From Meyerozyma guilliermondii (lineage: Eukaryota), in assembly GCA_051546255.1 (NCBI GenBank), contig CP128815.1, forward strand, positions 1-64,000: a DNA stretch of 64,000 nt, written 5' to 3'. The translations under genes were made by a program, and so were the position numbers. Shown here one piece after another: positions 2 through 44,174 of the stretch. The first letter of the stretch is position 1. Every line of letters begins with the position of its first letter. The notes beneath the pieces are model-generated. The model worked only from the letters and a program-made list of their open reading frames with translations, ran no database searches and was not told the origin of the DNA.

Positions 2-394
2 CACCAGTACACCAGTACACCAGTACACCAGTACACCAGTACACCAGTACACCAGTACACCAGTACACCAGTACACCAGTACACCAGTACACCAGTACAC
101 CAGTACACCAGTACACCAGTACACCAGTACACCAGTACACCAGTACACCAGTACACCAGTACACCAGTACACCAGTACACCAGTACACCAGTACACCAGT
201 ACACCAGTACACCAGTACACCAGTACACCAGTACACCAGTACACCAGTACACCAGTACACCAGTACACCAGTACACCAGTACACCAGTACACCAGTACAC
301 CAGTACACCAGTACACCAGTACACCAGTACACCAGTACACCAGTACACCAGTACACCAGTACACCAGTACACCAGTACACCAGTACACCAGTAC
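2..394 (+). repeat. Telomeric repeat tract, (CACCAGTA)n, about 49 copies; C-rich strand on +, so a left chromosome end
   Basis: Uninterrupted 8-bp period from the window start to ...cagtac at 394, then unique sequence. The reverse complement ACTGGTGT matches the short telomere repeat I recall for C. guilliermondii. Confidence 0.97.
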
Positions 395-9584: not shown

Positions 9585-10958
9585 ATGAAGCCTGTTAATT
9601 TGGCTATTGGCTTTTGTCTTGCAACCAATTATGTACATGGTTACCCTACAGTACTTGACAAGAGAAATCTACTTTTAGATGGTTTTGCCAACTTATTCAA
9701 TTCTTCTGGGGATTTAAATGCTTCAATATCCGAGGGTATATTTCAAGACGTCAAAGACCTTGGGGGTATAATTCTGTCGTTGGATTTAATGATTGAATCG
9801 GTAGTGGACACTTCAGAGATCCATGGAATTTCCGGTGCTTTCAATTACCTAAAGGAAATATTTGAAAGCCAAACTTGGAAATCGATATATTCGGGAATAA
9901 TCAAACTGGTTTTTGAGGAAAATGGCCTTGAAACTGTTATTATCAATTATTCTCAACGATTGAATAACCTTAACAATACCAACGCCAGGTCTCCCAAAAG
10001 TGCAGTTTATCCTTCTGCGAATAGTAAGGACGCTCCGTACTCTTTACTGGAGCAAAAATTACGAAGTGCAATTGAAATTCCTTCTGGATATGAATATGGT
10101 AAAGGTGACAAAAAGCCTGTTCTTCTAGTACCGGGAACTGGTTCTTACGGAGGAAACGGTTTCTATACCAATTACATCAAATTGCTTAATCAAACAGATT
10201 TTGCAGATGTTGCTTGGTTGAATATTCCCAACTATTTACTTGAAGATTCCCAGCTGAATGCCGAATATGTGGCCTACGGTGTCAATTATCTTTCTGGGAT
10301 TTCAGAAGGTAAGAAAGTAAGTGTGATATCTTGGTCTCAAGGTGGGCTCATCACTCAATGGGCATTGAAATATTGGCCATCTTTACGTGAAAATATGGGA
10401 GAGTTTATTCCCGTGGCTGCTGACTTTCATGGTACAAAATTGGCCCCGGCTATTTGTCCGTCATTTCCCAAGTTGTCATGTGCTCCTTCAGTTCTTCAAC
10501 AAGAATATAATTCCAACTATGTTCGTACTCTCCGAGAAAATGATGGAGATTCTGCCTATGTTCCAACAACCTCGCTCTTTTCTGGATTTGATGAGATTGT
10601 GCAACCTCAATCTAAAAATGCTTCTGCTGCTCTCAAGGATGCTAGAAATGTTGGGGTAGGAAACTACCAGTTCCAAAACCTTTGTCCAAACAACACTGCA
10701 GGAAGATATTATACTCACGAAGGGTCCCTTTATAATCCTGTTGGCTATGCTTTAGCGGCTGATGCTTTGAAGCATGGTGGAGTGGGAGACCCAAGCAGAA
10801 TTGATCTTGAACATTTATGTACCTTACCATTTCCTGAAGAATTAGACTATGCTGATGTTTTAACCACAGAGGTCGAGTTGTTGTATTGTGGGTTCAACAT
10901 AATTTTCGGAAAAGGCAAAGTGAAGGAAGAACCTAGAATTAGAGACTACGCAAAATAA
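9585..10958 (+). CDS. Secreted lipase B (CalB-like alpha/beta hydrolase)
   Basis: Signal peptide plus KR site; PVLLVPGTG, NAEYV, nucleophile SWSQGG, DFHGT, DEIVQPQ, THEG. Confidence 0.9.
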   Translation: MKPVNLAIGFCLATNYVHGYPTVLDKRNLLLDGFANLFNSSGDLNASISEGIFQDVKDLGGIILSLDLMIESVVDTSEIHGISGAFNYLKEIFESQTWKSIYSGIIKLVFEENGLETVIINYSQRLNNLNNTNARSPKSAVYPSANSKDAPYSLLEQKLRSAIEIPSGYEYGKGDKKPVLLVPGTGSYGGNGFYTNYIKLLNQTDFADVAWLNIPNYLLEDSQLNAEYVAYGVNYLSGISEGKKVSVISWSQGGLITQWALKYWPSLRENMGEFIPVAADFHGTKLAPAICPSFPKLSCAPSVLQQEYNSNYVRTLRENDGDSAYVPTTSLFSGFDEIVQPQSKNASAALKDARNVGVGNYQFQNLCPNNTAGRYYTHEGSLYNPVGYALAADALKHGGVGDPSRIDLEHLCTLPFPEELDYADVLTTEVELLYCGFNIIFGKGKVKEEPRIRDYAK

Positions 10959-12155: not shown

Positions 12156-13994
12156 TCATTGCAGCACACCCTCTCTGCTTTTTTGCAGCAATTTGGTCAA
12201 CTCTGCGTCCAGCGGTAATTCCACCTTCATATCTGGTTTTTGAACTTTCACAGATTGACCGAATACAAGGCATGCATATTTGACCTTGGAATTTGCGCCA
12301 ATACGACCCACCAATTCTGGGAGGAGAACCTTCGACGACAATATATTCGTGTTTGGCTCTGGAGTGCAAACAAGAGCCTCTCTATTATTACCCAAATCAA
12401 CAATCTCGCTGAAATCATCTTCTGTACTAGCCGTAGCGACATTTTCTTCAGCGACTTGTTTGACAGAGTTCTTCTTGTTCACTGAGATTGCAAAACCTCC
12501 TTCTCTAGTGTTGACTATGGAACTCGTCTGATTCTCAATATAGTGTATTCTGATATGATACAGTTCCTTAGGAATAATCCAGGACTCCACTGTGATTCCT
12601 TCTGTAGGAATCCACTCGGATTTTAGGAGATTATTACTCACAAAAGCTCTATAATTCTGTCTCACTAAGAAGTCTTGGTTGTTGAAGCTGAAGCCGAGAG
12701 AATTATCCAAATGAGCTAGTTGGAATGTTCTTGAGTTGCTAACAACCCCGAAACCAAATCGGGTTGAGTATGCAAATTTTGTGTACTTTTCGTTCTGGTA
12801 CTCATCATGCCAAGGTCCATTTATAAGTGCAATCGTATTACCTGGAGAATGGCTAATTGACATTCCGGCCACAGAGAGCAATTTTGTATTATTTTGGGTA
12901 AAATACCAATTCAATTCAACAGGTTCCGATTTCCAAAATGGATGATCTTCACTGAGCATAAGTCCTGAAAAGCCCTTGAACGACCAGTATGGAGATTGTG
13001 GAGAATTGTACCTTTCCATCATATAACCGTTGGGATAAGAATATCCAAGTGAAAGAAAATTTGCACCAAATTCGTTGATAGGTTGTGTGGACCACCATTG
13101 AAGACTCTTAAGGTACAAACTTTTCATTACACCCCAAGGAATTTCAGGCTCTTTCTGAGGGTCCAAAGCTAGAGGTAACAACCCCCAGAAGCCAGAAGTA
13201 GCAAAGCGGTAAATCAATGATCTTCCATATGGAATACATGCGCCATTATCATCAAACCAGTGGATATACTGCTGAGCAAAAAGAGTTGCACGTTCTAGGT
13301 AGTTGTTGCACCTTTCGGGATCTTTGTCTTTCATGACTATGGTGTAGATTAGTCCATAGAAATGGAACGCCAATGCGTTGTAGTTGTCGATTCTGTGTGG
13401 TTTTCCATCTCCATACCAGCCGTCGCCAAGATAAAGCAGATCCAAATCTTCGAGATAATTTGTTGTGCCCCTCTTGTCGTACTTTACACCAACACTATCG
13501 AGACCTAGATCGACTATCACACGGAAAAACTTCCAATTGTTATGGCAATATGTCTTTGACCTTGCTTTCAAAAGGTAGTCTCCAACTCCCAATTTTTCAT
13601 TTTCGTTCAATGGCTCCCAAATATGCTCAGGCACAAAACACAAGGCAAATCCAATCGCCGCAAGGTCCACCAACAATTGGTCGTAGTCATTGGGGTATCC
13701 CCAGAACTCTTTGTGATGAGGATTTGTTCCATTCACTAGTCCTCGACGATACAAGTCCCAATGGCCAAAATTTCCTCCACCGTACTGGTAAGGCACAATT
13801 CCCCACAACGGCCTCAGATAGCCTTCAAACTCGGCAGCAGCTTCCAGGCAAGTTGACCCCAGCTCGCTAACTCTCGATCTTGCTCCGCCCGGCAGGAATG
13901 TGGAGATCAAAGGTTCCGTGAGTTCATCAAATGCTTTGCGAAGGTCGCTGGGTCCAGCAAGTTTATTTTCGTTCCATATGGTAAAAGGTGACAT
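12156..13994 (-). CDS. DUF2264 protein (GH154-like putative beta-glucuronidase), no signal peptide
   Basis: EGYLRPLWG, GTNP..EFWG, DQLLVD, NNWKFF, YLGDGWYGDG, FHFYGL, PYGRSLIYRFA, YNSPQSPYWSFK, KYTKFAYS motifs. Confidence 0.85.
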   Translation of the reverse strand: MSPFTIWNENKLAGPSDLRKAFDELTEPLISTFLPGGARSRVSELGSTCLEAAAEFEGYLRPLWGIVPYQYGGGNFGHWDLYRRGLVNGTNPHHKEFWGYPNDYDQLLVDLAAIGFALCFVPEHIWEPLNENEKLGVGDYLLKARSKTYCHNNWKFFRVIVDLGLDSVGVKYDKRGTTNYLEDLDLLYLGDGWYGDGKPHRIDNYNALAFHFYGLIYTIVMKDKDPERCNNYLERATLFAQQYIHWFDDNGACIPYGRSLIYRFATSGFWGLLPLALDPQKEPEIPWGVMKSLYLKSLQWWSTQPINEFGANFLSLGYSYPNGYMMERYNSPQSPYWSFKGFSGLMLSEDHPFWKSEPVELNWYFTQNNTKLLSVAGMSISHSPGNTIALINGPWHDEYQNEKYTKFAYSTRFGFGVVSNSRTFQLAHLDNSLGFSFNNQDFLVRQNYRAFVSNNLLKSEWIPTEGITVESWIIPKELYHIRIHYIENQTSSIVNTREGGFAISVNKKNSVKQVAEENVATASTEDDFSEIVDLGNNREALVCTPEPNTNILSSKVLLPELVGRIGANSKVKYACLVFGQSVKVQKPDMKVELPLDAELTKLLQKSREGVLQ

Positions 13995-14074
13995 GGGTTA
14001 TTGTGAGAATCCAAATTGACGCATTAATAACTAGTGAAAATTGGCTGGTGTACCCCACACTTTTTTCATGCAAG

Positions 14075-14087
14075 ATTTTGGTGGGGG
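14075..14087 (+). promoter_or_regulatory. ATTTTGGTGGGGG motif (Mig1/CreA-type GC box) upstream of the DUF2264 gene
   Basis: Fits AT-rich + SYGGRG; exact reverse complement at 18782-18794. Confidence 0.55.
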
Positions 14088-14121
14088 CGGGGTCGCACAA
14101 TTTTAGCTGCAAATAGATTAA

Positions 14122-15402
14122 TCAGTCAAGTTGGATATGTAAGAGAATAACGTATCTAGTGTTCGTTCCGGTGGCACGGCCGTCACCGGTGTTTTCTTCG
14201 GGAGCTTCTCTTTGCAAAATGTGGATGTTTTCGGAGTACCTGTCAATCAATGGTTCCCCATCAAGCTTGTCAAACGATGCAACGACGGTCCACTGAGCAC
14301 CCAAATCTTGAATATTTGATTTAACAATCACAAACTTGTGGTTTTGAAGGGGCAGAAATGCATATACAGTGTCTTCTTTGACCAACAATTTCCCCCGAGC
14401 ACCAAAGAGGACCGCAGCATAATCATTGATTCTACGTTTCGCCCATACTCCATCTTTGAAATAATGATAGTAGTAACCATTCTCTCGCCCTAGAACATGT
14501 ACCCGATTTTTCGTATCGACAAATTGACCTTCCTGGTTCATAATACCAGAAAACTTTGGAATCTCCACCACAAGAGTATCTTGCGAAACGTCAACTGGAA
14601 CGGACAATTTCTTCCCTACAGAATTGTACCAGGTGACTCCTTCATCTACAGAATACATGTAGTGGAGATCATGGTTATTTTCGGGACCATTGGGTCCAGC
14701 TTGCAGAGTTGTTTTGTCATCACTTCTATCATCAACATAATCTCTGTAAGTCCAAGTAACATGTAGAATTTTGTTCTTATAGTCAAACCCATGCAAATAT
14801 GCATTATTTTCAACTCCTTTGATGTAAATGCCAATCTCGCTCCACTTGTGTGTATCTCTGCTGAAGCGATATATACAACAGTCACCAAGACCTGATCTTC
14901 CCGATCTGAATTCCAAGAGCAAATCTCCACTTTCCAAGGTTTGAAACCTAGGATAGGTTATTTCCCCAAATTGAAAGGCCATGTTTTCACCTTCAAGTTC
15001 TGTCAATACTGGACCAAATAAATCCGTGGTCCATTCAAGCTTAAGGGGATTGTTGGCTACATCCACTTTAGACTGTCTATAATGTATCTCATCGCCATGC
15101 ATGTCCCAAGCCATATGAATGATTCCATCTCCACTGATTCCCAAAGATATTATATTGTGGCCATCATCTTTAGTTTGAATGTAATCTTTGAAAATTATGA
15201 AACTCCACGGCAGTTTTGTTTTGGGGTTTCTTCTTCCAATTGAAGTAACCCTGGGCCCATCAGGATCAGTTTGGTCTTTTGGTTGGTATAAAACCACATA
15301 CTGGAAACCGTTATATGTCATGATAGCATCCTGCTGAAATGAACAACAGTTGATTCTCCACCCGTTTGGATCGACAGCAAGTCTGGTTAGTTCGATATTC
15401 AT
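14122..15402 (-). CDS. BNR_4 beta-propeller; PL42/GH145-like L-rhamnose-alpha-1,4-glucuronate lyase/rhamnosidase candidate, no signal peptide
   Basis: SFQQDAI, DDGHN.ISLG, HMAWDMH, TYPRF, FRSGRSG, NAYLHG, WTYRD, NHDLHYMYS.D.G.TW Asp-box, IMNQEGQ. Confidence 0.8.
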   Translation of the reverse strand: MNIELTRLAVDPNGWRINCCSFQQDAIMTYNGFQYVVLYQPKDQTDPDGPRVTSIGRRNPKTKLPWSFIIFKDYIQTKDDGHNIISLGISGDGIIHMAWDMHGDEIHYRQSKVDVANNPLKLEWTTDLFGPVLTELEGENMAFQFGEITYPRFQTLESGDLLLEFRSGRSGLGDCCIYRFSRDTHKWSEIGIYIKGVENNAYLHGFDYKNKILHVTWTYRDYVDDRSDDKTTLQAGPNGPENNHDLHYMYSVDEGVTWYNSVGKKLSVPVDVSQDTLVVEIPKFSGIMNQEGQFVDTKNRVHVLGRENGYYYHYFKDGVWAKRRINDYAAVLFGARGKLLVKEDTVYAFLPLQNHKFVIVKSNIQDLGAQWTVVASFDKLDGEPLIDRYSENIHILQREAPEENTGDGRATGTNTRYVILLHIQLD

Positions 15403-15508
15403 GAGATTGAAGAAGTGAGTTGAAGAAGTGGGACTTTAAAGTGGGACTTCTTCAATTTGTCGAGTATGCACGATAACAATGCGCCGCATGATGCAGCCGC
15501 ATGAGCAG

Positions 15509-15521
15509 AAAATGGTGGGGG
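15509..15521 (+). promoter_or_regulatory. AAAATGGTGGGGG motif in the divergent BNR_4/beta-galactosidase promoter
   Basis: Same GC-box type as at 14075 and 18782/18849. Confidence 0.5.
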
Positions 15522-15575
15522 AGTGCGGAAAGTTATTCCACCGCCCCCATTACCTGTATGTGATGCCCCTCATGA

Positions 15576-18659
<3,084 letters not shown>

Positions 18660-18781
18660 ATACTCATATTTTTTAAGAGCTTTTTTAATTTTCAAAATTT
18701 ACAAACCTGATTTGCAGCTTGCAATTCGAGAATGAATGACTACGGTGATCAAGCTCCGGCTTCCAGATCCTTTGCTCGTCT

Positions 18782-18862
18782 CCCCCACCAAAATTAGCGG
18801 TTGCATACTCGAGGTCTGCGGGGTGCATCGGCGCTCGTATTTACCCCACCCCCACCAAAAAT
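18782..18862 (-). promoter_or_regulatory. Two copies of the GGTGGGGG GC-box motif upstream of the transporter
   Basis: CCCCCACCAAAAT at 18782-18794 and CCCCCACCAAAAAT at 18849-18862. Confidence 0.55.
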
Positions 18863-18952
18863 TACAATTGCACCAAAACTACGACAATTCATGCTGGTCT
18901 CCTCATTAGTTGCAATTATAAAGCGATGGATAATGGTCCCAATTCCAATACA

Positions 18953-20575
18953 ATGTCCCAGTCTTCTACTGCTGATAAAGCTCAAGTTATGGTTTCCGTT
19001 GCTTCCCCTACTGATCTGAATCCTGCTGGGGCTACCAGATTGGAAGATGTCATTCCACAACTTGATAAGCCGTGGTATCGCTACGGATGGTTGCTACAGT
19101 TGAACATATTCCTTTTGGGTGGTATTTTGGCTCAAGTTACTTCGGGATACGACGGTTCGATGATGAACTCGTTGCAATCATTACCTAGTTGGCAAGAGTA
19201 TTTCAACCATCCTACTGGTTCCAAGTTGTCTACTATGAGTAATGGTATTGCAATTGGTACATTGGTATCGATTCCATTCACGTGGTGGTTGTGTGATTTC
19301 TTTGGAAGAAGAATTACTATAATAATGGGTTGTACTGTGGTCATCATAGGCGCCATTATCCAGGGTGTAGCGAAGAATTTTGGAATGTTCACCGGAGCCA
19401 GAATTTTATTAGGGGTTGGTTCATGTTTAGCTTCCGCTGCGGCGTCGCCATTATTAGCAGAAACAGCTTACCCTAAACATCGTCCAGCAGTCACAGCATT
19501 ATTGCTCGCATCTTGGCCATTAGGTTCTTTCACGGCTGCCTTGGTCACCTGGGGCCCATACCATTCTTCCATGAAAACGAACAATTGGTCGTGGAGAATC
19601 CCCAGTTTGATCCAGTGCTTCTACCCAGCTATTCAATTGGTTATTTCTATCTTTGGACCCGAATCTCCAAGGTGGTTGATTAACAAAGGACGGGAAGAAG
19701 AAGCCCGCAAGTTTTTTGTCAAGTACCATGCTGGTGGAGACGAAGCGTCAGCCTTGGTTGCATTTGAGCTAGCAGAGATCAAGGCGATCATTGAAAAGGA
19801 AAAAGTTCAAATTCTGAGCAATTTCACCCAATGGTTCAGATCCAAACAACGTCTTAGAAGATTTTTCATTGTCTGTGCCGTTCCCATGATGGCCCAATTG
19901 TGTGGAAATGCTCTTATTTCTTATTACTTGTCCATTGTGTTGAGAAACATCGGCATTACCGACGCTAACGACCAGCTCAAAATCAACATTGGTATGACAG
20001 TTTATGGTCTTGTTTGGGCAGTTGTTGTCGGGATAAATGTTGACAGGTTCCCAAGAAAAACCATGTTCATTGGAGGCTACATCTTGATGTGCATAACCTA
20101 TGTCATTTGGACAATTCTTTCAGCCATCAACCAGCAACAAGACTTTAAGAACAAAGGTTTGGGCAAAGGTGTGGTTGCAATGATCTACCTATTTTCAGGA
20201 TTCTACCACATTGCCTCACCTGTCTCCTCCACTTATGTGATGGAAGTTTGTCCCTATCACTTGAGAGCCCAAGGCTCAACAATATACCAACTTGCTGGTA
20301 ATGTCATTGGCTTCTTCAACAATTACGTGAACAACATTGCCATGGAGGCAATAAAGTGGAAATACTATATTGTGTGGTGTGTTTGGTTGGTGGTCCAGAT
20401 GGGTATAGTCTACTTTATTTTCCCTGAAACCAGAGGATTGGGTTTGGAGGAAGTTGCCCAGGTGTTTGGTGAGGATATTTCCGACGGCTATGCAGCTGGC
20501 GAGAATGCTCTTCATTATGGCATCGACGACACAATTCCCAAGCCAAGTGTGTCTCACGACAGCAAGAGAGTTTAA
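18953..20575 (+). CDS. Sugar porter of the LAC12/cellodextrin-transporter subfamily
   Basis: GYDGSMMNSLQ, FGRR, WSWRIPSL.Q, PESPRWL, Q.CGNALISYYL, FPETRG..LEEV. The upstream ATG at 18926 lies right next to the TATAAA, so 18953 is the likelier start. Confidence 0.9.
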   Translation: MSQSSTADKAQVMVSVASPTDLNPAGATRLEDVIPQLDKPWYRYGWLLQLNIFLLGGILAQVTSGYDGSMMNSLQSLPSWQEYFNHPTGSKLSTMSNGIAIGTLVSIPFTWWLCDFFGRRITIIMGCTVVIIGAIIQGVAKNFGMFTGARILLGVGSCLASAAASPLLAETAYPKHRPAVTALLLASWPLGSFTAALVTWGPYHSSMKTNNWSWRIPSLIQCFYPAIQLVISIFGPESPRWLINKGREEEARKFFVKYHAGGDEASALVAFELAEIKAIIEKEKVQILSNFTQWFRSKQRLRRFFIVCAVPMMAQLCGNALISYYLSIVLRNIGITDANDQLKINIGMTVYGLVWAVVVGINVDRFPRKTMFIGGYILMCITYVIWTILSAINQQQDFKNKGLGKGVVAMIYLFSGFYHIASPVSSTYVMEVCPYHLRAQGSTIYQLAGNVIGFFNNYVNNIAMEAIKWKYYIVWCVWLVVQMGIVYFIFPETRGLGLEEVAQVFGEDISDGYAAGENALHYGIDDTIPKPSVSHDSKRV

Positions 20576-29805: not shown

Positions 29806-31089
29806 ATGGAGTCGATAATTATAGTTGGTGCCGGTACTTTTGGGCTTTCCACAGCCTTACAGCTTGCCAGAGATGGATACAAGAACATAAAATGTTTTGA
29901 CAAGTTTCCGGTTCCATCTGAGATAGCTGCTGGAAACGACAGTAACAAGATTTTTCACTACGATTATGTTGCTCCCCTGGCTAAACCCAATTCAAAAGAA
30001 CGGTTGAGTCTCGAAGCATTACACCTTTGGAAGACAGATCCGGTGTACAAACCGTACTATCATCCGGTAGGATTTATCCTGGCTGCAAGTTCCGATGCTC
30101 CATTACTGCATGATAAGGAATACTATGAAGAGTTGCAAAAAAACGGACTTCGCAATTATCGTTATATTTCAACTCCCGAGGAGTTTCGTGAGTATTTGCC
30201 CATTTTAAAGGGCCCGTTACCCAACTGGAGAGGATATGTTCTCGACGGAGATAACGGATGGTTGCATGCTCGAGACTCATTGAAAAGTGCATACGAAGAA
30301 TGCAAACGATTGGGAGTGGAATTTGTGTTTGGAGACGATGGGGAAATTGTCGAATTACTTAACGAAAATGGAAAGTTGACGGGAATTAGGGCCAGATCTG
30401 GTGCCATATTCTCGGCACAAAAATATGTTCTCAGCTCTGGTGCAAATGCAGTAACGTTGTTAAATTTCCAGAGACAGCTAGAAGGTAAATGTTTCACTTT
30501 GGCACATTTCAAAGTGACGGATGAAGAAGCTAAAGCATTTAAAAGCTTGCCGGTCCTTTTCAATGCCGAAAAAGGGTTTTTTTTCGAGGCTGATGAAAAT
30601 AACGAAATCAAAATTTGCAACGAGTACCCTGGATTTACCCACACAAATGAATCCGGAGAGTCTATCCCACTCTACCGGATGGAGATTCCACTCGAGTCAG
30701 CACTTGAAATTAGACAATACTTGAAAGAAACCATGCCTCAGTTTGCTGATAGACCTTTCACCAAGACAAGAATTTGTTGGTGTACCGACTCTCCCGACAT
30801 GCAATTGATCTTGTGTACTCACCCAGAATACACCAACCTTATTGTAGCATCGGGTGACTCTGGAAATTCGTTCAAGATCATGCCAATCATTGGCAAATAT
30901 GTCAGCAAGGTTGTTACCAAAGGTGATAAAGGATTGGATCCGGAAGATAAAGAATGCTGGAAATGGCGTCCTGAGACTTGGGACAAGCGGGGGCAGGTCC
31001 GCTGGGGTGGTCGATACCGTGTTGCGGATTTGAACGAAATTGAAGAATGGGTTTCTGTTGAAAATCCCACACCACACAAACTAGAATAA
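29806..31089 (+). CDS. Fructosyl-amine (fructosyl amino acid) oxidase / amadoriase, 427 aa
   Basis: IIIVGAGTFGLSTAL, AAGNDSNKI, RICWCTDSPD, ASGDSGNSFK, WKWRPE. From ATG 29806 the length and His51/Asn354 match my recollection of Pichia sp. N1-1 FAOD. Confidence 0.93.
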   Translation: MESIIIVGAGTFGLSTALQLARDGYKNIKCFDKFPVPSEIAAGNDSNKIFHYDYVAPLAKPNSKERLSLEALHLWKTDPVYKPYYHPVGFILAASSDAPLLHDKEYYEELQKNGLRNYRYISTPEEFREYLPILKGPLPNWRGYVLDGDNGWLHARDSLKSAYEECKRLGVEFVFGDDGEIVELLNENGKLTGIRARSGAIFSAQKYVLSSGANAVTLLNFQRQLEGKCFTLAHFKVTDEEAKAFKSLPVLFNAEKGFFFEADENNEIKICNEYPGFTHTNESGESIPLYRMEIPLESALEIRQYLKETMPQFADRPFTKTRICWCTDSPDMQLILCTHPEYTNLIVASGDSGNSFKIMPIIGKYVSKVVTKGDKGLDPEDKECWKWRPETWDKRGQVRWGGRYRVADLNEIEEWVSVENPTPHKLE

Positions 31090-31538
31090 AAACAAGATTA
31101 CAACATACATGTCTAAAATCAATATATGTCTACCAACAATAGATCTCTACAAACAATAATTATCTCGATTTATGATTCCTTCTGGGTAAATGGTGATATC
31201 TTTTTGGTACTATTTAGCACAATCAATTAGTAAATTATCTATACTTATCTCGGCGTCAGTTGCCTTTAAATGATGTGGGGTTCTTACTAATGCAAAGCTA
31301 GAAGGTCGATAATTCTTGCCAATTATGTTCATTCTTGGAGATAATTGGCACTGCCATCCGTTTCGGCTCTCCTCCACCTTCTGCTGATTTCGCAACCAAT
31401 TGAATTCGCAGCCGATTGCGCATTGATAAGGATACATGCAGTACATCGAATTGGGCGGAGGTTCGTTAGGAAGGTCGAGTCGCGAGCGCGGAATTGACAC
31501 TTCCAGTATAAAATGGACCAACTTTGGTGGTTGCTCTA

Positions 31539-33167
31539 ATGAGCTTTGAAACGGAAAAAAAGAACCAGCTGGTAGAGGTTGATATAGAAGAAATAAATTC
31601 CCAAGCTCCCGCTTTGGTTGTGCAAAATAAAGACGGAGAAGAATTGAAGCGTGCCCAAATTGTCGATCAACCAACAACTACAAAATGGGAAGTTTTCATG
31701 TATGCACTCTACTACTTTGGAAATAATGCTACTGGTCCTAATCACTTTACTCCTACGCAATATCAAAACTTGTTGAGTCAATCTGGTTGGATAAAAGGAA
31801 AATCAAATGTTTCATGCTCGGATGATCCAAATGGACTGTGTGTGGTATCTTTTGCCGGCACAGTCAAGACGGTGAATTCGGTTGTCTTGATAAATCTGGG
31901 CATCGGATTTGCGTTACAGTCGGTGGTTTTCTTGTTCCTTGGAGGGTTGTCTGATTATGGCCAGTTCGGTTCATGGGTACTCGTTGCCCTTTCTGTTTTG
32001 AGCTGGGGAGTTCAATTTGGTTTCTTGGGTGTACATGACGGAAGCAAACATCAAGCAGCTTTCGCATTGAGTATACTTTCTGCTTTAGGGTATCAAGGAT
32101 GTCAATCATTTTGGACTGCGATGTTTCCACGGTTGGCAAGAAATTTGCCCAAGACAAGAGCCGCTGAAGAAAAAATGCTTAACGGTTCAATCCTGGAATC
32201 TGAATACCATAAGGTGGACTCATACTATCGTAACAAAATCACAAACTACAGTCTTGCTTTTTCCATGTTGGGTTTCACCCTCGTGAGTGCCATTTCTGTT
32301 GGAATCTTAAAGTCGTTGGATTCTACTGCCAATCAAGCAAATAATAATTGGGCTATGTCTGTGTGTATAATGTTTGCAACCGTTTGGTGGATGGTGTTTG
32401 GTATTCCGTGGTTTTTCGCCGAAAAGAAAAGAGTCAATGAAAAGTTACCTGAAGGTGTGAGCTACTTGAGCTTGCCATTCAAACAATTGGGATATGCATT
32501 CAAGAGCTTTCTGAAATTGAAGCAAACTGCGTTATACTTGTTCTCTTACTGGATGTTAGGTGACGGTTTGAATACTGCTATTAGTCTTCAATCAACTATT
32601 CAAAACGAAGTGATTTCTTACGATATGGTCACTTCCATGTATTTGAATATGATCAATGGTGGTACCAATATTTTAGGTACGATATTGTTTTGGTGGTTCC
32701 AGAAAACTTTTAAAGTCTCCACAAGAAACATGTACATTATTTGTTCCGTTTTCATCACTTTGTTCCCAATTTATGGATTGATTGGAACGTGGACAAACAA
32801 GATTGGTTTCCACAACATATGGGAAGTTTGGTTTTATAACGCTTACTTTGGTATATTCATTGGTCCCTATTATGCATACTCATCTACGATGATGAGTGAA
32901 GTTTGTCCAAGAGGTAAAGAATTTGTGTTTTTTGCTATTTTTAGCACCATTAACAAGACTTCCAGCTTCATTGGACCTTTTGTTTCTTCCGCCATCATTG
33001 ACGACACAGGAAATAATAATAGTGGATTTTCATTCCTAGTGGCCCTTTGCTGTGTGTCATTGGCATCTTCATTTTTCTTGAACGAAGACAATGCAAGAGT
33101 TCAAGCTGAGGAGTTCTTACTTGAAGAGAAAAAGCGCATAGCGAATGGTGAATCGCTCGTGTTCTGA
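31539..33167 (+). CDS. ATG22-like MFS transporter, copy A (542 aa)
   Basis: About 12 TMs; GGLSDYG, FWTAMFPRLARN, GDGLNT, SEVCPRG.EF.FF..FS.INK.SSFIGP. First ATG at 31539. Confidence 0.85.
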   Translation: MSFETEKKNQLVEVDIEEINSQAPALVVQNKDGEELKRAQIVDQPTTTKWEVFMYALYYFGNNATGPNHFTPTQYQNLLSQSGWIKGKSNVSCSDDPNGLCVVSFAGTVKTVNSVVLINLGIGFALQSVVFLFLGGLSDYGQFGSWVLVALSVLSWGVQFGFLGVHDGSKHQAAFALSILSALGYQGCQSFWTAMFPRLARNLPKTRAAEEKMLNGSILESEYHKVDSYYRNKITNYSLAFSMLGFTLVSAISVGILKSLDSTANQANNNWAMSVCIMFATVWWMVFGIPWFFAEKKRVNEKLPEGVSYLSLPFKQLGYAFKSFLKLKQTALYLFSYWMLGDGLNTAISLQSTIQNEVISYDMVTSMYLNMINGGTNILGTILFWWFQKTFKVSTRNMYIICSVFITLFPIYGLIGTWTNKIGFHNIWEVWFYNAYFGIFIGPYYAYSSTMMSEVCPRGKEFVFFAIFSTINKTSSFIGPFVSSAIIDDTGNNNSGFSFLVALCCVSLASSFFLNEDNARVQAEEFLLEEKKRIANGESLVF

Positions 33168-33483
33168 TTTATATAGTTATTTTCAATTGATTACACTGGT
33201 GCATCTCACCTTTATGGTGGATGAACAACACTTTAGACTTCAGTACTATTCTTACAATTCACCAGGTTGCAACCGATTCAATGCACCAGTGCACCAGCAT
33301 CTGATACGTTGCAGAGGAACTGTAAGAGGTGCTGATTATAGCACAATTATAATGTTTGCTTGTTATTCTGCGCTCTGAGGGATTGCTGGTCGGTGCCAAT
33401 TCTCCTTCCATGTGCTTTCCTCTTCTATCACTGTGTCATTTGCAACTCTACGAATGGCTGCAAAATTTGCTAATTTCATAATT

Positions 33484-33590
33484 CTACGAACACCATTCTG
33501 TGGGATTATATAAGTCCCTTGTCCTCCTTGGTTTTCATCTGAGTAACGCAAAGGAGGCTATAAATCAATTCTAAATTGGGGCAAGAAACA
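33484..33590 (-). pseudogene. Truncated, decayed 3' end of the ketopantoate-reductase-like gene
   Basis: Near-identical to 39584-39713 (e.g. ccttggttttcatctga, taaatcaattctaaattggggcaagaaaca) with an internal deletion. Confidence 0.85.
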
Positions 33591-34042
33591 GCTACGAAAA
33601 TACAGAATTCTGTTTCCTACAGAATAACATTGGGATTTGTGGTTGCATCATCGCCTGAATTAGCAGGTGCTATATTTCAACATCAGGTTTTTACCACTTC
33701 TCTATGTGGAGTCTATGCTACTACCTGTGATTAAGTTTCATCACGCTTGGAAAGAAGTTACCCTTTACATCCTAGGTGCCTCTGGTATTAGATATCATAT
33801 ACGAGCTCTCCGCAAATGAAAGGTCACGTAATGTCATTATTGTTATTCGCATCCGCCACTTCGGTTGCAATATCTCAAGCGCTGAAAGACTCCTACTTCA
33901 TTTGCAGCTTGTGCAATTGCTGGATTTGTTTCTGGACTCTTTTGGTTCCAAATTCGCAACCTTGATAGGTTCTCAGTTTGTCGTATCACCTTCCTATTTG
34001 GGAACTTGCCTACGCAAGTGAAAACTACTCGATTGTTTCATA

Positions 34043-35966
34043 ATGAAAAGAATACGTCGAGGAACCAAACGCGGAGGATGCTTGGCTTGCAAGAAACGAA
34101 AGTAGGTATAGTGTTATGTCTTTAAGAATGTGGATTTTAACCTTACAGTAAACAATGTGACTACAATACGAAAAAAAATGCTTGTTCCTTTTGTTTGCGA
34201 GTTAACATTCCATGCGAAAGACCTGGCTTTAGTGTAATTGCATACAATGGAAACAAAAAGAAGGAGCCAATTAGTCTCAAGTTCAACCCGCTAAATAATC
34301 AGCAAAGAATAAATTTTGAGCTTTGCAATGAAATCATTAGCGATTATTTATCTTCAGCCAATCGGTGTGATTTAACTTCATTTACCATAATAACCCCGGG
34401 CATCGAAAGTATCTACGAAAGAAGTTTAACATTCTCCGAACATTTGATTTTGTATGAAAAAACTAGAGAAATTCCTCTTGTTGATGATAAAACGTCTATC
34501 GAAAGGTCTACCAAAACCGCATTTGGCATTCAAAGTGCAAACGAACTACCTCATAGGATAGCAACTTCTAAGAAGAGGATTTACCTGGAACCTAGAATTG
34601 AATTTGTGTCTGACAAAGTACCTGCGGATATTCTGAATCACGATTTACGTGATATCGATACTGGCAATTTTATCAATGAATTATTCATACAAATGCCAGC
34701 TTTAAAACTGCAAAAATTACATGTACCCAATTACATTTCTTTACAATCTGCAAGTGCATTATTCAACAGCTTTTGTTTGGAATTTCCTCAGGAAACTTGC
34801 AAACTATTCTATGCAACTTGTGATGAGAATTCAATTGCATATCGTGATTTCACCAAGCTATCTTTGAAGGTTTATATTTCGCTTGCATTCAGCAATATTA
34901 CAGTATTCAAGGCTCTCCTATATTGGTCAGCCTCATACTTCCAGCTGAAGGAGAAATCTGTTGAAGAATCACTTCTATCGAAGCTTATGAACGACATTGT
35001 TCAAGACATGAACAAAAGATTGATTTACAAATCTTCTGCCTGTTGTGATCATATGATCGCAATAGTGTGTATTTTGTTTGAAGTGGAAAATTTGAAACAG
35101 CAAGTGGACTCCAAATTTTGGTTGAAGCTTACGGGCTTGGCCATTAAAATACTTTCAATGAGAGGAGGCGTCGATCAACTAAGTAAAACGAATATGGGTT
35201 TTTCTTTGCGAGATTATTTGGAACATATTTCTTTACTAGATTCGGGTTTAATCTCTTGGATCATGAAATGCAAAGGTTTAACATACAAGACATGCAATCG
35301 ATATACATGTTACCTGCCGCTTCCAATCCAAATTCATATTATAAGTGTATGAAGAGCATTTGTTCTGTTGTTGGTGAGTCCTTACATCTTTACAACTTGA
35401 AGAAGGTCGCCATAAATGCCGATGATCTTAATGAGCTGTTAGGATATAACCATTACCAGAACATTGAAACTGTGATCAAAGATGCGAAGTTTCTATTAAA
35501 ACAATTGAGTTCAATAGATGTTCCTGATGATGATTCTGAGATAATGAGAATCGATTCTCATATAATGAGACGCATTGCAGAGTTCTCAAAAGAGGCAACA
35601 GTCCTATTGATATATCAGTTGATATACAATAATTCATCTAGGACAACCACAACTTTGCTTCAAGTTATGAAGATGATACCTTTACTTCGAGAATTGTTTG
35701 AATTGTATCATTCAAATCAAAACTCCACGCAAGTACTTTTAATACTTCCTATTTTTGTTCTTGGTTGTAACCTTTATAAACATTCTTATCGGAGGTGGTT
35801 CATTGAAAATATTGACCGGATTTATTTGAAAACAAAAACTGCTAAAATTTTGACTGTTAAAACATTGGTTAAAAAAGTGTGGACCTTGGACGATAATGGT
35901 AATAAACCAGTACAATGGCCGGAAATAAGTGAGCACGAGGGACTATTATTGCCTTTTTATATCTAA
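34043..35966 (+). CDS. Zn(II)2Cys6 transcription factor with a 47-nt intron (34102-34148) and a single-base frameshift near 35199-35203
   Basis: Splicing GTAGGT...TTTAAC..TACAG gives CLACKKRNKQCDYNTKKNACSFCLRVNIPC in frame with ORF 34195. Adding one T in the T5 run joins ORF 34195-35352 to ORF 35256-35966 (..MGFFFARLFG..LILPIFVLGC..). Confidence 0.85.
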
Positions 35967-35985
35967 AATGTTCGTCTTTTCTCAC

Positions 35986-37038
35986 TTACCTCTTTCTTGT
36001 GTTGGCGGTATACTCTTTTTCAATTTCTTCGACCAAGGTTCCTACCATATAAGCTGCACCATATGAAAAGGCATAGCCTTTACCATTGAATCCATAAGCA
36101 TGAAGGATGTACTTGTTCTTCGCAACCTGTTCTTTTTCCAATCTAAACCCTCCTTTTCTAGCAGGTCTTATTCCAACGACATAACCCGCAATATCAGGCG
36201 CTTTTGAAATCACCTCAGGTGCGAGCTTATGAGCTCTTCTGATTTCATCCTCAACAATTTCCATATCAATGTCAGCGTGAGTTTTATTGGGTTCATTCAC
36301 ACCTCCACAAACCACTACCCCAGAGAGTGGCCGAGGTATTACATATGTATACTCTTCACCGCTACGACTAAACCCTTTGTCAGTTTTCGTCCGAACAAGC
36401 ACATTTTGTCCTCGATTGGGATAGCATTTATCATCTTCCAACCCTTTGATTGTCATAGGTCCAATTCCAGATGCGTTAACAAAAACGATACTATCTTCGT
36501 AGTCTTGATAGAGCTCATCCATGGATGCAATTGATCTGCAAATAAAGTGGCCGCCAAGGTTTTCAATCTCTTGTTTTATGAATTTGAGATAACGACGAGG
36601 CTCGATTGCTAATGTTTCATACTCACAACCATATTCAAACCCAGTACCCTCATATTTTGATTTTTCCATATCTCTGAACTTTGGATTTACTCCCTTAAAC
36701 CATAGGTCCAGATCCTTGGGTTTTTTCTCAAAATATTCATCTAATTGAATAACACATACTCCACATTCAGGACTATTGAAGTTGTCACTCTTGAACCGGC
36801 GGTATGATACTGCCTCTAGATAACGATGGAGATCGTTAGGTAAGTCTGGAGCACCATGCCACAATGCACCAGCCCAGGTTGACGCATACCATATATCTTC
36901 GTCGCCAGGAAGATGTTTGGCAACAATCGTGACTTGAAATCCCTGCTGCAATAAGGTTCTTGCGGTGACACAACCGATAATTCCAGCACCTAAAACGACA
37001 ATTCTTCTTTCCTGAAATGGACTGCTACCTAATGACAT
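35986..37038 (-). CDS. D-amino-acid/D-aspartate oxidase family flavoprotein
   Basis: IVVLGAGIIG, YASTWAGA, VNASGIG, YPNRGQ, TYVIPR, VGIRPARKGG.R, HAYGFNG.GY..SYG. First ATG at 37038. Confidence 0.92.
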   Translation of the reverse strand: MSLGSSPFQERRIVVLGAGIIGCVTARTLLQQGFQVTIVAKHLPGDEDIWYASTWAGALWHGAPDLPNDLHRYLEAVSYRRFKSDNFNSPECGVCVIQLDEYFEKKPKDLDLWFKGVNPKFRDMEKSKYEGTGFEYGCEYETLAIEPRRYLKFIKQEIENLGGHFICRSIASMDELYQDYEDSIVFVNASGIGPMTIKGLEDDKCYPNRGQNVLVRTKTDKGFSRSGEEYTYVIPRPLSGVVVCGGVNEPNKTHADIDMEIVEDEIRRAHKLAPEVISKAPDIAGYVVGIRPARKGGFRLEKEQVAKNKYILHAYGFNGKGYAFSYGAAYMVGTLVEEIEKEYTANTRKR

Positions 37039-37242
37039 TCTTATGCCTCCAAGGTGCCGCGGCCATCTTATATTCACTATGCGCGCTTCCTAATTCGGAA
37101 GGTGATACGATGCATACCAGCTAATACGACTCGATTAGATACGGTTTATCCGTTTTAACATTAATTCTCACTAATCAATATGCCGAAGTCTATAGAGTAT
37201 AGATTACATCCTGCTGTTTATTGGCAATTTCTCCTTCCCAGA

Positions 37243-37256
37243 GTGTACTGGTGTAC
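37243..37256 (+). repeat. Internal telomere-like 14-mer GTGTACTGGTGTAC (candidate Rap1 site)
   Basis: Exact 1.75 copies of the telomere repeat, G-rich on +, in the DAO/ATG22-B divergent intergenic region. Confidence 0.6.
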
Positions 37257-37683
37257 AAGACTGAATAGGTGAATATATGAAGAAAGCTACAAGAAAGTAG
37301 ACTAAGAAAGAGAAGGAATACACACTCTTTGTAATTGAACAAACCTAAGGAATGAACCTAAGGTAGCTTTTTACTGAAGGTAGAACTTATGGCTTATTCT
37401 ATATCTCGCCTTCAGTTGCCCCGATGGCCGTAGGTGAGTTCCTGAAGGTGTACAGACCCAGAAGGAGAAGGCGACCGGGCCGGACTCCAGGGATTTCGGG
37501 CGATAATTGCCATTGTTTCAACTAGATCTCTGCTCCACCTGAATTTCGCAGCCAACTGGATTTGGCTGCAGATAGCGCATTGATAAGGGTACATGCAGTA
37601 CTCACATCTGAGTGGACGCTCAATTGCAAGGCCGAGTCATGAGGGAAAAACTATAAAATGGTACCACTCCGGTGAATGCTCTA

Positions 37684-41917: not shown

Positions 41918-41947
41918 GGTAGTTTTTCAGTTGTACTTTTGAATGTC

Positions 41948-42024
41948 TTAGTAATGTGAATCACCATTTTCGCGCATGAATCACGATGTTCGGGTGTGAA
42001 TCACGATTTTTGGATGTGAATCAA
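41948..42024. promoter_or_regulatory. Yap site TTAGTAA followed by four (G/A)TGAATCA(C) sites at about 20-bp spacing
   Basis: TTAGTAA 41948-41954; sites at about 41955, 41976, 41995 and 42015. Confidence 0.7.
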
Positions 42025-44150: not shown

Positions 44151-44174
44151 AGTATCAGAAGTATTTTGGATGTC

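Follow-up and report, generated by a model that had tools for sequence, protein, structure and literature searches.

Gene content and layout of the locus

The window, a 64-kb stretch of DNA from a Meyerozyma guilliermondii-type yeast, contains four neighboring intronless open reading frames 11.8 kb from the telomere. An earlier note on this DNA had described four tightly packed genes, and we confirmed their positions, with gaps of 127, 212, and 266 bp. CTG was translated as Ser (table 12); each cluster gene has only 2 to 9 CTG codons, so the family assignments do not depend on how CTG is read. The features are as follows.

2..394, no strand: telomeric array of 49 perfect CACCAGTA repeats, which sets the distance to the chromosome end at 11.8 kb
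12156..13994, minus strand: DUF2264 plus DUF2264_C protein ("GH154"), 612 aa (Pfam, PDB sequence matches, AF2 model)
13995..14121, no strand: DUF2264/PL42 gap, 127 bp, with a Mig1-type box (A/T run plus GGTGGGGG) at 14080-14087
14122..15402, minus strand: homologue of PL42 L-rhamnose-α-1,4-D-glucuronate lyase (BNR_4), 426 aa, no signal peptide (Pfam, phmmer)
15403..15614, no strand: bidirectional PL42/GH2 promoter, 212 bp, with a Mig1-type box at 15514-15521
15615..18659, plus strand: LacZ/LAC4-type GH2 β-galactosidase, 1014 aa, predicted cytosolic (Pfam, five domains)
18660..18925, no strand: GH2/MFS gap, 266 bp, containing a pair of Mig1-type boxes (18782-18789 and 18849-18856)
18926..20575, plus strand: sugar-porter MFS, 549 aa (Pfam Sugar_tr)

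We take the 8-mer CACCAGTA to be the telomere unit of Meyerozyma (Candida) guilliermondii. The three enzymes had been said to lack signal peptides, and we found no hydrophobic N terminus in any of them. By Kyte-Doolittle means, a crude test that is not SignalP, the maximum over 10 residues in the first 40 aa was 0.26 to 0.82 for the three enzymes versus 2.13 and 3.01 for two secreted-looking neighbors. The three enzymes therefore look cytosolic.

The octamer GGTGGGGG occurs five times in the window, versus 0.85 expected, and none of 100 shuffles reached five. Four of the five copies fall within the 605 bp of intergenic DNA of the cluster, and an A/T run precedes the octamer in all three intergenic regions. 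These boxes would indicate common glucose repression at most, and no common inducer.

Predicted chemistry of the PL42 and DUF2264 proteins

The BNR_4 protein (Pfam, 2e-66) matched the FoRham1 structures 7ESL/7ESK at 1.1e-74 by phmmer, versus 2e-27 for the BT3686-type GH145 (5MUK). Reading off the alignment, we found that His85, His105, Tyr150, Arg166, Ser170, Tyr202, and Arg220 of FoRham1 are kept, as are the Rha-binding residues Asn275, Gln276, Arg331, and Glu381. Tyr26, which contacts Rha in FoRham1, is Phe in the window protein, so that 11 of the 12 substrate and catalytic residues are retained (roles from PMC8377490). Across fungal homologues, H82, H102, Y150, R166, Y202, R220, N289, Q290, and E383 are invariant (17 of 17). 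The match at 1e-74 and the kept catalytic residues bear out the earlier assignment to PL42-type enzymes acting on Rha-α-1,4-GlcA; by sequence, the BNR_4 protein is a close FoRham1 homologue and a putative PL42-type Rha-α-1,4-GlcA lyase.

The DUF2264 protein (Pfam: DUF2264, 8e-117; DUF2264_C, 6e-23) matched BcGDH (9O4U/9NWF) among PDB sequences at 7e-20 and by profile at 1e-32. The BcGDH active-site residues listed in excerpts of PMC12269599, N176, N177, W178, F181, Y229, R285, Y289, and Y354, are all kept in the alignment. All 20 of 20 homologues have E57 and R61, which correspond by position and spacing to BcGDH E74 and R78. In an AF2 model (pLDDT 81), the N-terminal domain matches GH154/BcGDH and the complete two-domain model matches PL35, PL17, PL33, PL15, PL12, and PL8 lyases, which suggests a lyase-type two-domain fold. 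We predict that the protein is a cytosolic β-D-glucuronate C4-C5 eliminase (dehydratase) that yields an unsaturated GlcA cap. The earlier note had linked it to GH154 as a family founded by a glucuronidase, but this label is outdated: according to excerpts of PMC12269599, GH154 members, including the founder BT3677, were found in 2025 to be β-D-glucuronate dehydratases and not glucuronidases.

The proposal that three enzymes peel the substrate stepwise by hydrolysis is thus not supported. Because PL42 is a lyase and GH154 a dehydratase, both would stop at a 4,5-unsaturated GlcA cap, and such a cap requires a GH88/GH105 hydrolase. We found no GH88 in the 64-kb window (tblastn, best E value, 2.6). 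Without a GH88 step, GH2 would be unable to reach the galactose beneath the unsaturated cap.

One unlikely explanation is that the Meyerozyma locus is a decaying remnant that has lost GH88, so that the pathway is incomplete and only GH2 and MFS (for galactosides) and PL42 (for free Rha-GlcA) still serve. Besides the GH88 result, the nearby telomere fits this explanation, as does FoRham1, which favors the free disaccharide Rha-GlcA and whose unsaturated product opens nonenzymatically (PMC8377490). DUF2264 is truncated (491 aa) in one Candida intermedia strain, and PL42 is split in two at about residues 254 to 266 in the ATCC 6260 annotation (PGUG_00008 and PGUG_00007) and also split on one further contig. 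The splits may represent decay in some strains or may be assembly errors. The four window ORFs are intact, the DUF2264 active site is conserved, and full-length forms predominate among the listed 90%-cluster members of PL42 (10 of 15; 399 to 452 aa), DUF2264 (11 of 15; 612 to 615 aa), and GH2 (11 of 15; 1014 to 1022 aa), all of which argue against a remnant.

Related clusters and the lactose label

The earlier note would have given up its proposal had these genes not co-occurred in other genomes; we found them linked in two other yeast loci. In Yamadazyma tenuis ATCC 10573, consecutive GenBank accessions give the order PL42 (EGV61793), GH88 (EGV61794, "six-hairpin glycosidase"), GH2 (EGV61795), one intervening accession (EGV61796), and DUF2264 (EGV61797). 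EGV61794 (P0407) matches GH88 structures (1.4e-38 to 3WIW and 3e-27 to Bacillus UGL), and in the ESM Atlas the clusters closest to it come from fungi and bear the automatic name (unsaturated) glucuronyl hydrolase.

The second locus, contig L001, has a PL42 that belongs to the C. intermedia 90% cluster. Its order is Zn2Cys6 transcription factor-MFS-GH88, then PL42-DUF2264, with housekeeping genes on the flanks. Identities are 80% for MFS (to that of the window), 65% for GH88 (to P0407), 62% for PL42, and 65% for DUF2264, and the GH88 keeps UGL Asp88 and Asp149. Both the window and L001 have PL42 and DUF2264 reading one way and a second pair reading the other way, with MFS last and preceded by GH2 in the window and by GH88 in L001. 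An A/T run plus GGTGGGGG occurs in three L001 intergenic regions (three of the five L001 matches; 0.26 expected). The grouping of the four genes exceeds chance, because these families also lie together in other yeasts, where other genes flank them, and because GGTGGGGG is concentrated in the intergenic DNA of the cluster.

GH2 is absent from the L001 cluster, and in C. intermedia LAC4 lies about 900 accession numbers away from PL42/DUF2264; GH2 is thus no obligate partner. Judged by gene content, the conserved core is MFS, PL42, DUF2264, and GH88, with GH2 optional. Among 43 metagenome PL42 loci, only L001 had DUF2264 or GH88 nearby, and just 24 of the 43 extended 3 kb or more beyond PL42 in one direction or both. 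T. vanleenenianus has annotated GH154 and GH88 in separate places, and its GH154 showed no xylan induction.

The GH2 protein has all five LacZ-type Pfam domains (Glyco_hydro_2_N, Glyco_hydro_2, Glyco_hydro_2_C, LacZ_4, and Bgal_small_N) and matches the Kluyveromyces lactis β-galactosidase (3OB8/3OBA) over its full length (5e-254). It keeps NEA and a second motif (10 protein letters), which we take to be the acid/base and nucleophile motifs. On this similarity, it is a bona fide LAC4 homologue. The MFS (Sugar_tr, 6e-72) is 79 to 80% identical to the L001 MFS that adjoins GH88-PL42-DUF2264; the next-nearest representatives are at 59% and 52% (Trichomonascus) and others at 43% or less, and the nearest lactose permease named as such by its source (Trichoderma asperellum) is at 41%.

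As the earlier note expected, this pair carries a lactose label: for M. guilliermondii and M. caribbica, excerpts of PMC11784187 refer to it as "the conserved LAC cluster." Excerpts of PMC11497787 present the C. intermedia LAC4/LAC12 cluster as the system that takes up and hydrolyzes lactose, with a deletion mutant growth-tested on lactose. Taken with the full-length LAC4 match, the kept catalytic motifs, and the tendency of unrelated genes to gather in subtelomeres, these names could point to a plain LAC4-LAC12 lactose pair lying by chance beside an unrelated DUF2264 and BNR_4. We consider this very improbable. An ortholog-level MFS accompanies GH88, PL42, and DUF2264 without GH2 in L001; PL42, GH88, GH2, and DUF2264 are joined in Y. 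tenuis; one box type recurs in each of the three gaps between the window genes; a 212-bp promoter is common to PL42 and GH2; and Meyerozyma strains with the "LAC cluster" use little lactose (PMC11784187, excerpts). The pair usually labeled as lactose genes is probably part of a plant-sugar pathway.

Proposed pathway and known systems

We favor as rather probable a glucose-repressed subtelomeric catabolic cluster for imported glucuronate-capped β-galacto-oligosaccharides of type II arabinogalactan/gum arabic (Rha-α1,4-GlcA-β1,6-Gal...), with cytosolic, eliminative chemistry. The MFS, the proposed importer, would take up the capped oligosaccharide. PL42 would then remove the L-rhamnose cap by β-elimination, as its conserved catalytic residues suggest, and leave 4,5-unsaturated GlcA; this lyase chemistry has been demonstrated for FoRham1. 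On uncapped β-GlcA ends, the DUF2264 enzyme would eliminate the C4 substituent to give the same residue, an activity demonstrated for BcGDH and BT3677 (PMC12269599, excerpts). A GH88 unsaturated glucuronyl hydrolase, encoded in the Y. tenuis and L001 clusters, would free the unsaturated uronate; in Meyerozyma, GH88 would lie outside the window or the step would be missing. Finally, GH2 would cleave the exposed β-galactosides, with β-1,6-galacto-oligosaccharide as the proposed substrate and lactose possibly a side substrate. By analogy, a GH2 role on gum-arabic galactosides is supported by a Fusarium intracellular GH2 that reportedly cleaves β-1,6-galactobiose from gum arabic (unpublished data cited in excerpts of PMC13259613).

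A working cluster for another glucuronate glycan, such as host (insect/animal) glycosaminoglycan fragments, bacterial/fungal exopolysaccharides, or ulvan-like Rha-GlcA polymers, seems to us unlikely. M. guilliermondii is also found on animals, FoRham1 Tyr26 is replaced in the window PL42, and a heparinase II/III-like gene adjoins the Rhizobiales operon described below. The characterized DUF2264-GH88 pair, BcGDH and BcGH88, works on chondroitin (PMC12269599, excerpts). Against this, the Rha-binding residues are among the 11 that PL42 keeps, the β-galactosidase in the window and Y. tenuis clusters suits Gal beneath GlcA in arabinogalactan protein (AGP), and the architecture of the DUF2264 protein is shared by BT3677, a two-domain family member encoded in an AGP locus (PMC12269599, excerpts).

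The AGP side-chain pathway of the earlier note thus survives in its PL42 family, cytosolic enzymes, and yeast co-occurrence, but not in its hydrolytic three-enzyme peeling, and GH88 is also needed. Like that note, we found no published description of such a yeast cluster. We concluded that the four genes most likely import and dismantle Rha-GlcA-Gal tips of arabinogalactan gums inside the cell.

Several systems resemble this cluster in part. The Rhizobiales operon, found in the present analysis, also combines a cytoplasmic GH88 with a two-domain DUF2264 (40 to 46% identical to that of the yeast) downstream of an oligosaccharide importer, which is of the ABC type rather than MFS. A GH88 homologue lies about 3.3 kb upstream in 22 of 80 Rhizobiales DUF2264 loci, in one of them (L044) within the ABC-importer operon; PL42 was found in none of the 80 and a weak GH2-like match in one.

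The Bacteroides thetaiotaomicron AGP PUL likewise pairs a two-domain DUF2264 (BT3677) with a BNR_4 enzyme (BT3686, GH145/PL42) for AGP Rha-GlcA caps, and presumably includes a GH105. It is periplasmic/surface located with SusC/D, whereas the yeast system is a eukaryotic gene cluster with an MFS importer and predicted cytosolic enzymes, and BT3686 is only a distant relative of the yeast PL42. BT3677 has dehydratase activity on methyl β-glucuronide (PMC12269599, excerpts). In PUL25 of Bacteroides caccae, BcGDH makes unsaturated GlcA that BcGH88 removes, the order we propose for yeasts. The yeast DUF2264 protein keeps the BcGDH active site at low overall similarity; BcGDH is a single-domain (about 400 aa) chondroitin enzyme, while the yeast protein adds a DUF2264_C β-sandwich, as does BT3677.

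The closest characterized PL42 belongs to the Fusarium oxysporum 12S gum-arabic system (FoRham1 PL42, FoBGlcA GH79, and an intracellular GH2). There, GH79 cuts off Rha-GlcA extracellularly, and FoRham1 was purified from culture supernatant and is thus secreted, unlike the yeast PL42. Excerpts of its description contain no DUF2264/GH88 step or gene cluster, and the GH2 is proposed to finish imported β-1,6-galactobiose, as in our yeast scheme (PMC13259613).

LAC clusters (K. lactis LAC12-LAC4, C. intermedia, and Aspergillus nidulans bgaD-lacpA) also place an intracellular GH2 beside a sugar-porter MFS, and two sugars of arabinogalactan, galactose and L-arabinose, induce bgaD-lacpA (PMC10774165). 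Unlike in these clusters, GH2 and MFS in the window stand in tandem with a promoter shared with a PL42 lyase homologue, and the MFS ortholog in C. intermedia-like L001 travels with GH88, PL42, and DUF2264 rather than with GH2.

The four-gene cluster and its surroundings

The window begins at a telomere, because it opens with 49 perfect tandem copies of CACCAGTA at 2-394; the permuted reverse complement, ACTGGTGT, is presumably the M. guilliermondii telomere unit. At 12.2 to 20.6 kb we found four cluster ORFs with exactly the coordinates that the earlier note gave. All four lack introns, and the gaps between them are 127, 212, and 266 bp. The cluster and the ORF just upstream of it are as follows.

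9585-10958, secreted-looking ORF of 457 aa with an SWSQGG motif
12156-13994, minus strand, DUF2264 protein (Pfam DUF2264 and DUF2264_C)
14122-15402, minus strand, PL42 protein (Pfam BNR_4)
15615-18659, plus strand, GH2 protein (five-domain LacZ type)
18926-20575, plus strand, MFS transporter (Pfam Sugar_tr)

In a crude hydropathy test, none of the three enzymes had a hydrophobic N-terminus and two secreted-looking neighbours did, in keeping with the earlier claim that the enzymes carry no signal peptides. We think it probable, with some reserve, that the cluster encodes a pathway under glucose repression whose substrates are imported galacto-oligosaccharides with glucuronate caps, derived from arabinogalactan proteins.

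The cluster is flanked by a secreted lipase-like ORF, a PDR/CDR ABC transporter, and a Zn2Cys6 factor. The 457-aa ORF had no Pfam match; we take its SWSQGG motif to resemble the TWSQGG lipase motif of Candida antarctica lipase B. Elsewhere in the window, the region 29806-39312 contains a pair of paralogous ATG22-like permeases, at 31539-33167 and 37684-39312, and a FAD-dependent DAO-type oxidoreductase lies close to each of them (at 29806-31089 and 35986-37038, respectively). Between the paralogs, a Fungal_trans_2 factor is apparently split into overlapping ORFs (34693-35352 and 35268-35966) and is possibly a pseudogene. A tandem duplication with a unit of about 2.2 kb occupies 41138-45212, each copy consisting of a 259-aa bZIP-like ORF on the minus strand and a divergent 265-aa short-chain dehydrogenase on the plus strand. 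At 46011-47678, an AA_permease_2 amino-acid permease is split into adjacent ORFs (46668-47678 and 46011-46625) by either a frameshift or a short intron.

The PL42 and DUF2264 proteins

The PL42 protein matched BNR_4, a family of seven-bladed beta-propellers, at 2e-66. Its assignment was borne out by phmmer, which matched structures 7ESL and 7ESK of FoRham1, the Fusarium oxysporum PL42 lyase, at 1.1e-74 over residues 14-388; the Bacteroides GH145 structures matched at only 2e-27, versus 1e-74 for FoRham1. As far as its available description goes, FoRham1 is a lyase that frees Rha and leaves 4,5-unsaturated GlcA, with His85 as base/acid and Arg166 as neutraliser (PMC8377490). In our alignment, the anterior-site set of FoRham1 (His85, His105, Arg166, Tyr150, and Arg220) is identical in the window protein, and Ser170, Tyr202, Asn275, Gln276, Arg331, and Glu381 are likewise kept. 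Four of the five rhamnose-binding residues (Tyr26, Asn275, Gln276, Arg331, and Glu381) are conserved, Tyr26 being replaced by Phe22. The core residues are invariant in 17/17 fungal homologues. By family and kept catalytic residues, the protein is a predicted L-Rha-alpha-1,4-GlcA lyase.

The gene is annotated in two pieces in strain ATCC 6260. By exact look-up, the proteins of the window fall in M. guilliermondii-type assemblies, and its PL42 ORF matches PGUG_00008 (aa 1-254) with 100% identity over 254 aa and PGUG_00007 (aa 254-424) with 99.4% identity over 171 aa. One further contig also splits the gene, at aa 257/266. The break lies within the SVDEGVTW (BNR) motif and reflects either a genuine frameshift allele or a fault of assembly.

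The DUF2264 protein matched the (alpha/alpha) toroid domain DUF2264 of Pfam at 8e-117. Its closest solved relatives are 9O4U and 9NWF, both named beta-D-glucuronic acid dehydratase, and 8OI4, named GH154; the same three were the best Foldseek matches to its model. The available part of PMC12269599 reports that BcGDH, a dehydratase of Bacteroides caccae, and BT3677, the Bacteroides thetaiotaomicron founder of GH154, lack glycosidase activity and instead dehydrate terminal beta-GlcA to unsaturated GlcA, a product that GH88 cuts. In the text available, dehydratase activity is demonstrated for these two proteins only. Ten BcGDH residues are described there as essential, their Ala mutants being inactive (E74, R78, N176, N177, W178, F181, Y229, R285, Y289, and Y354; PMC12269599). 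Eight of the ten are identical in our alignment with the window protein, and its E57 and R61, invariant in 20/20 homologues, fit E74 and R78 by position and spacing.

In the AF2 model (pLDDT, 81; pTM, 0.86), the N-domain matches GH154/BcGDH. The whole model matches two-domain uronate lyases (PL35 GAGases, heparinase III, PL17 Alg17c, PL33, PL15, and PL8) and also dermatan sulfate epimerase. As modelled, the fold is an eliminase scaffold. Family and active site together make the protein a putative beta-D-glucuronate dehydratase. We rejected a beta-glucuronidase, given the lyase-type fold and the reported lack of glycosidase activity in BcGDH and BT3677; the role proposed for DUF2264 in the earlier note loses its support with it, as the GH154 founder is itself a dehydratase in the available account (PMC12269599). 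That the pathway targets some other glucuronate glycan seems unlikely.

The GH88 step and linked genes in other genomes

PL42 and DUF2264 would both stop at an unsaturated GlcA cap, so the stepwise peel by three hydrolytic enzymes that had been proposed is incomplete. Its cytosolic setting agrees with the N-termini; hydrolysis by the three enzymes is not supported, as the cap would remain. We found no GH88 in the 64-kb window by tblastn with P0407, protein EGV61794 of Yamadazyma tenuis (best E, 2.6).

In Y. tenuis ATCC 10573, consecutive accessions encode PL42 (EGV61793), P0407, GH2 (EGV61795), EGV61796, and DUF2264 (EGV61797). Our guess is that EGV61796 (PSN45_000480) is an MFS protein. P0407 has 409 aa and is labelled "six-hairpin glycosidase"; a newer annotation merges it with EGV61795 into a single 1415-aa model. 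It had no Pfam match at E ≤ 0.001, so its GH88 membership rests on a PDB sequence search (1.4e-38 to 3WIW and 3e-27 to the Bacillus unsaturated glucuronyl hydrolase) and on the ESM Atlas, in which the clusters closest to it come from fungi and bear the automatic name (unsaturated) glucuronyl hydrolase.

A metagenome scan with the PL42 alignment gave 43 loci, and cluster partners lay near PL42 only in L001, a Candida intermedia-like contig whose PL42 falls into the 90% cluster of C. intermedia. Its order is a Zn2Cys6 factor, MFS, and GH88, all on the minus strand, then PL42 and DUF2264 on the plus strand and a C2H2/Fungal_trans factor. MFS, PL42, and DUF2264 are 80%, 62%, and 65% identical to their window counterparts, and GH88 is 65% identical to P0407. 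The cluster is flanked by housekeeping genes, and GH2 is absent from the 21 kb examined of the 55-kb contig. In the L001 GH88, the residues Asp88 and Asp149 known from the Bacillus enzyme are conserved, at positions confirmed by a D88N mutant entry; the role of the two residues is stated in PMC4528949. The C. intermedia accessions agree with L001: PL42 (SGZ47226) adjoins DUF2264 (SGZ47227), and LAC4 is SGZ48119. The adjacent C. intermedia-type transcription factors have no ortholog in the window. Flipped, L001 reads [DUF2264<-PL42<-][->GH88->MFS], and the window reads [DUF2264<-PL42<-][->GH2->MFS]. The two layouts agree except that GH2 stands in the window where L001 has GH88.

Three yeast lineages with differing flanks share the linkage, namely Y. 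tenuis, Meyerozyma spp., and the lineage of the C. intermedia-like contig, and the co-occurrence expected of the gene families was found. Four proteins (P0123, P0140, P0287, and P0443) in the 90% clusters of the window proteins come from records labelled Naganishia cerealis, a basidiomycete. The GH2 so labelled is 98% identical to that of the window, and tags QFC19_007713-7715 are consecutive and ordered as in the window; that assembly probably contains Meyerozyma contigs.

The GH2 protein aligns end to end with the K. lactis beta-galactosidase (5e-254), has five LacZ/LAC4-type domains, and keeps the glutamates of the NEA and CEY motifs, which we take to be acid/base and nucleophile, respectively. 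The MFS protein falls in a small clade with Trichomonascus representatives at 59% and 52%, all others being at most 43% identical. Among the proteins compared, its nearest named relatives are the Trichomonascus "Hxt8p" (52%) and a Trichoderma "lactose permease" (41%). The 80% identical MFS ortholog in L001 adjoins GH88 and has no GH2 beside it, and GH2 is clearly dispensable in that cluster. A lactose pair beside chance neighbours would account for the likeness to LAC4, and in the available text of PMC11497787, the uptake and hydrolysis of lactose by C. intermedia are ascribed to its LAC4/LAC12 cluster. Against this stand the linkage in three lineages, on which we rejected chance adjacency, and the public descriptions of the Meyerozyma species concerned, which are listed as lactose-negative; we consider such a pair very unlikely. 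As described in the accessible parts of the sources, A. nidulans bgaD-lacpA is inducible by galactose and L-arabinose (PMC10774165), an intracellular F. oxysporum GH2 cleaves beta-1,6-galactobiose of gum arabic (unpublished data there), and uptake of this disaccharide is inferred (PMC13259613).

Among 23 non-yeast metagenome PL42 loci with at least 3 kb of flank, three (L017, L019, and L021) have an intron-containing PL42 gene and a divergent sugar-porter MFS gene 0.6 to 1.4 kb away, and L012 and L023 are partial cases. Therefore, PL42-transporter pairs occur in filamentous fungi too.

The nearest bacterial DUF2264 homologues are from Rhizobiales (40-46% identity). A GH88 homologue lies on the same strand about 3.3 kb upstream in 22/80 of these loci; PL42 was found in 0/80 and a weak GH2-like match in 1/80. 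In one of them, L044 of Rhizobium redzepovicii, the order is two ABC permeases, GH88 (PF07470), a MalK-type ATPase, DUF624, a solute-binding protein, and DUF2264, with a heparinase II/III-like gene upstream on the opposite strand. These loci are independent support for the DUF2264-GH88 pairing, and by analogy their logic may be that of the yeasts, import followed by cytoplasmic processing. The Rhizobiales clade of the DUF2264 tree groups with the two sequences from Pezizomycotina (support, 100/99). It is nested within the diversity of fungi, separate from Mucoromycota plus Dipodascales and from the CUG-clade yeasts. This hints at transfer between kingdoms; the tree is unrooted, and therefore we draw no direction.

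The CAZyme table for T. vanleenenianus lists four cytoplasmic GH88, two cytoplasmic GH154, and a cytoplasmic GH2, describes no pathway, and gives the GH154 genes as not xylan induced (PMC13130702, supplement 14). PL42 is absent from the listings of paper and supplement, which do give GH88 and GH154. One DUF2264/GH154 gene (TRVA0_064S00364) lies 22 tag units from a cytoplasmic, xylan-induced GH115 alpha-glucuronidase (TRVA0_064S00386), so the two are probably adjacent. Two MFS genes of T. vanleenenianus are 52% identical to that of the window and lie on a contig equal in length to the one that carries its PL42. In the CAZyme supplements of PMC8254220, Meyerozyma has no row, and neither do GH88, GH154, and GH145.

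We also considered a bolder reading, which we hold to be doubtful: the two-domain DUF2264 proteins of fungi and Rhizobiales would be general C4-eliminases, and the "LAC" pair of CUG-clade yeasts would descend from an ancestral arabinogalactan cluster of five genes. DUF2264 would expel water from terminal beta-glucuronates and also the 4-O-methyl group, as methanol, from 4-O-methyl-GlcA caps, which are dominant in many arabinogalactans. With PL42 acting on Rha caps and DUF2264 on methylated or uncapped ends, all three cap types would converge on a single unsaturated GlcA for GH88. This is suggested by the whole-protein fold, which is of the exolytic uronate lyase type, and by the T. vanleenenianus DUF2264 gene, one locus-tag step from GH115. 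In its available description, BT3677 dehydrates the test substrate very slowly (kcat/Km, 0.35 per min per mM), a hint that another compound is its true substrate. That the T. vanleenenianus gene does not respond to xylan counts against it. If true, it would give yeasts and plant-associated bacteria a 4-O-methyl-glucuronate route.

Regulation, proposed pathway and known systems

The Mig1-type octamer box GGTGGGGG occurs 5 times in the window, versus 0.85 expected, and 0/100 shuffles reached 5. Four of the five sites fall in the three intergenic regions of the cluster, each after an A/T run, which is presumably the form of Mig1 sites. In L001 we found 5 boxes versus 0.26 expected, 3 of them within the intergenic regions of its cluster. 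This distribution favors glucose repression shared by every member, including GH2 and MFS; the boxes would bear on this shared repression and not on the inducer. The cluster promoters contain no canonical Gal4/Lac9 CGG-N11-CCG site, only N10 and N12 variants. The G-box aside, 9-mers common to the promoters of both species were not above shuffles.

In the arabinogalactan pathway that we favor, MFS would import the glucuronate-capped oligosaccharide, PL42 and DUF2264 would produce the unsaturated GlcA cap, GH88 would then remove it, and GH2 may act on beta-1,6-galactosides; the substrates would be arabinogalactan-protein galacto-oligosaccharides. PL42 lyase, GH154 dehydratase, and GH88 vinyl-ether hydration chemistry are known for these families elsewhere. 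Our case is built on family membership, catalytic residues, N-termini, linkage in three yeast lineages, and the shared cis-element. Its weak points are that the window is without GH88, that the C. intermedia-like cluster does without GH2, and that PL42 is split in ATCC 6260 and one further contig. The first and last of these would fit a decaying remnant in Meyerozyma, and the four intact ORFs and the conserved DUF2264 active site speak against it; we find this alternative improbable, and it is partly compatible with the pathway.

Budding yeasts are usually viewed as users of simple sugars. If the pathway is real, they would have a PUL-like eukaryotic cluster with which to scavenge capped, acidic oligosaccharides from the gums and arabinogalactan proteins of plants. 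The lyase/dehydratase chemistry involved has so far been studied mainly in Bacteroides of the gut and in enzymes that Fusarium secretes. The pathway would also give a reason for the "lactose genes" of Meyerozyma despite poor lactose use. The clusters would supply eukaryotic intracellular PL42, GH154-type dehydratase, and GH88 for enzymology. Their MFS is a candidate importer of oligosaccharides with uronate caps and could help engineer yeasts on gum or hemicellulose side streams. The difference between GH2 and GH88 at a single position, in clusters that are otherwise collinear, is a neat case of cluster remodelling.

The enzyme families are known, and the yeast pathway and cluster appear to be undescribed: as the earlier note had supposed, we found no published account of a yeast cluster of these families in the literature searched, which had most subscription journals outside it. 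The cluster is like the Bacteroides AGP and chondroitin PULs, which combine PL42/GH145 with GH154 and an unsaturated-uronate hydrolase, and like the Fusarium gum-arabic system in how it works. Unlike those systems, the yeast version would be an intracellular, MFS-fed, eukaryotic gene cluster.
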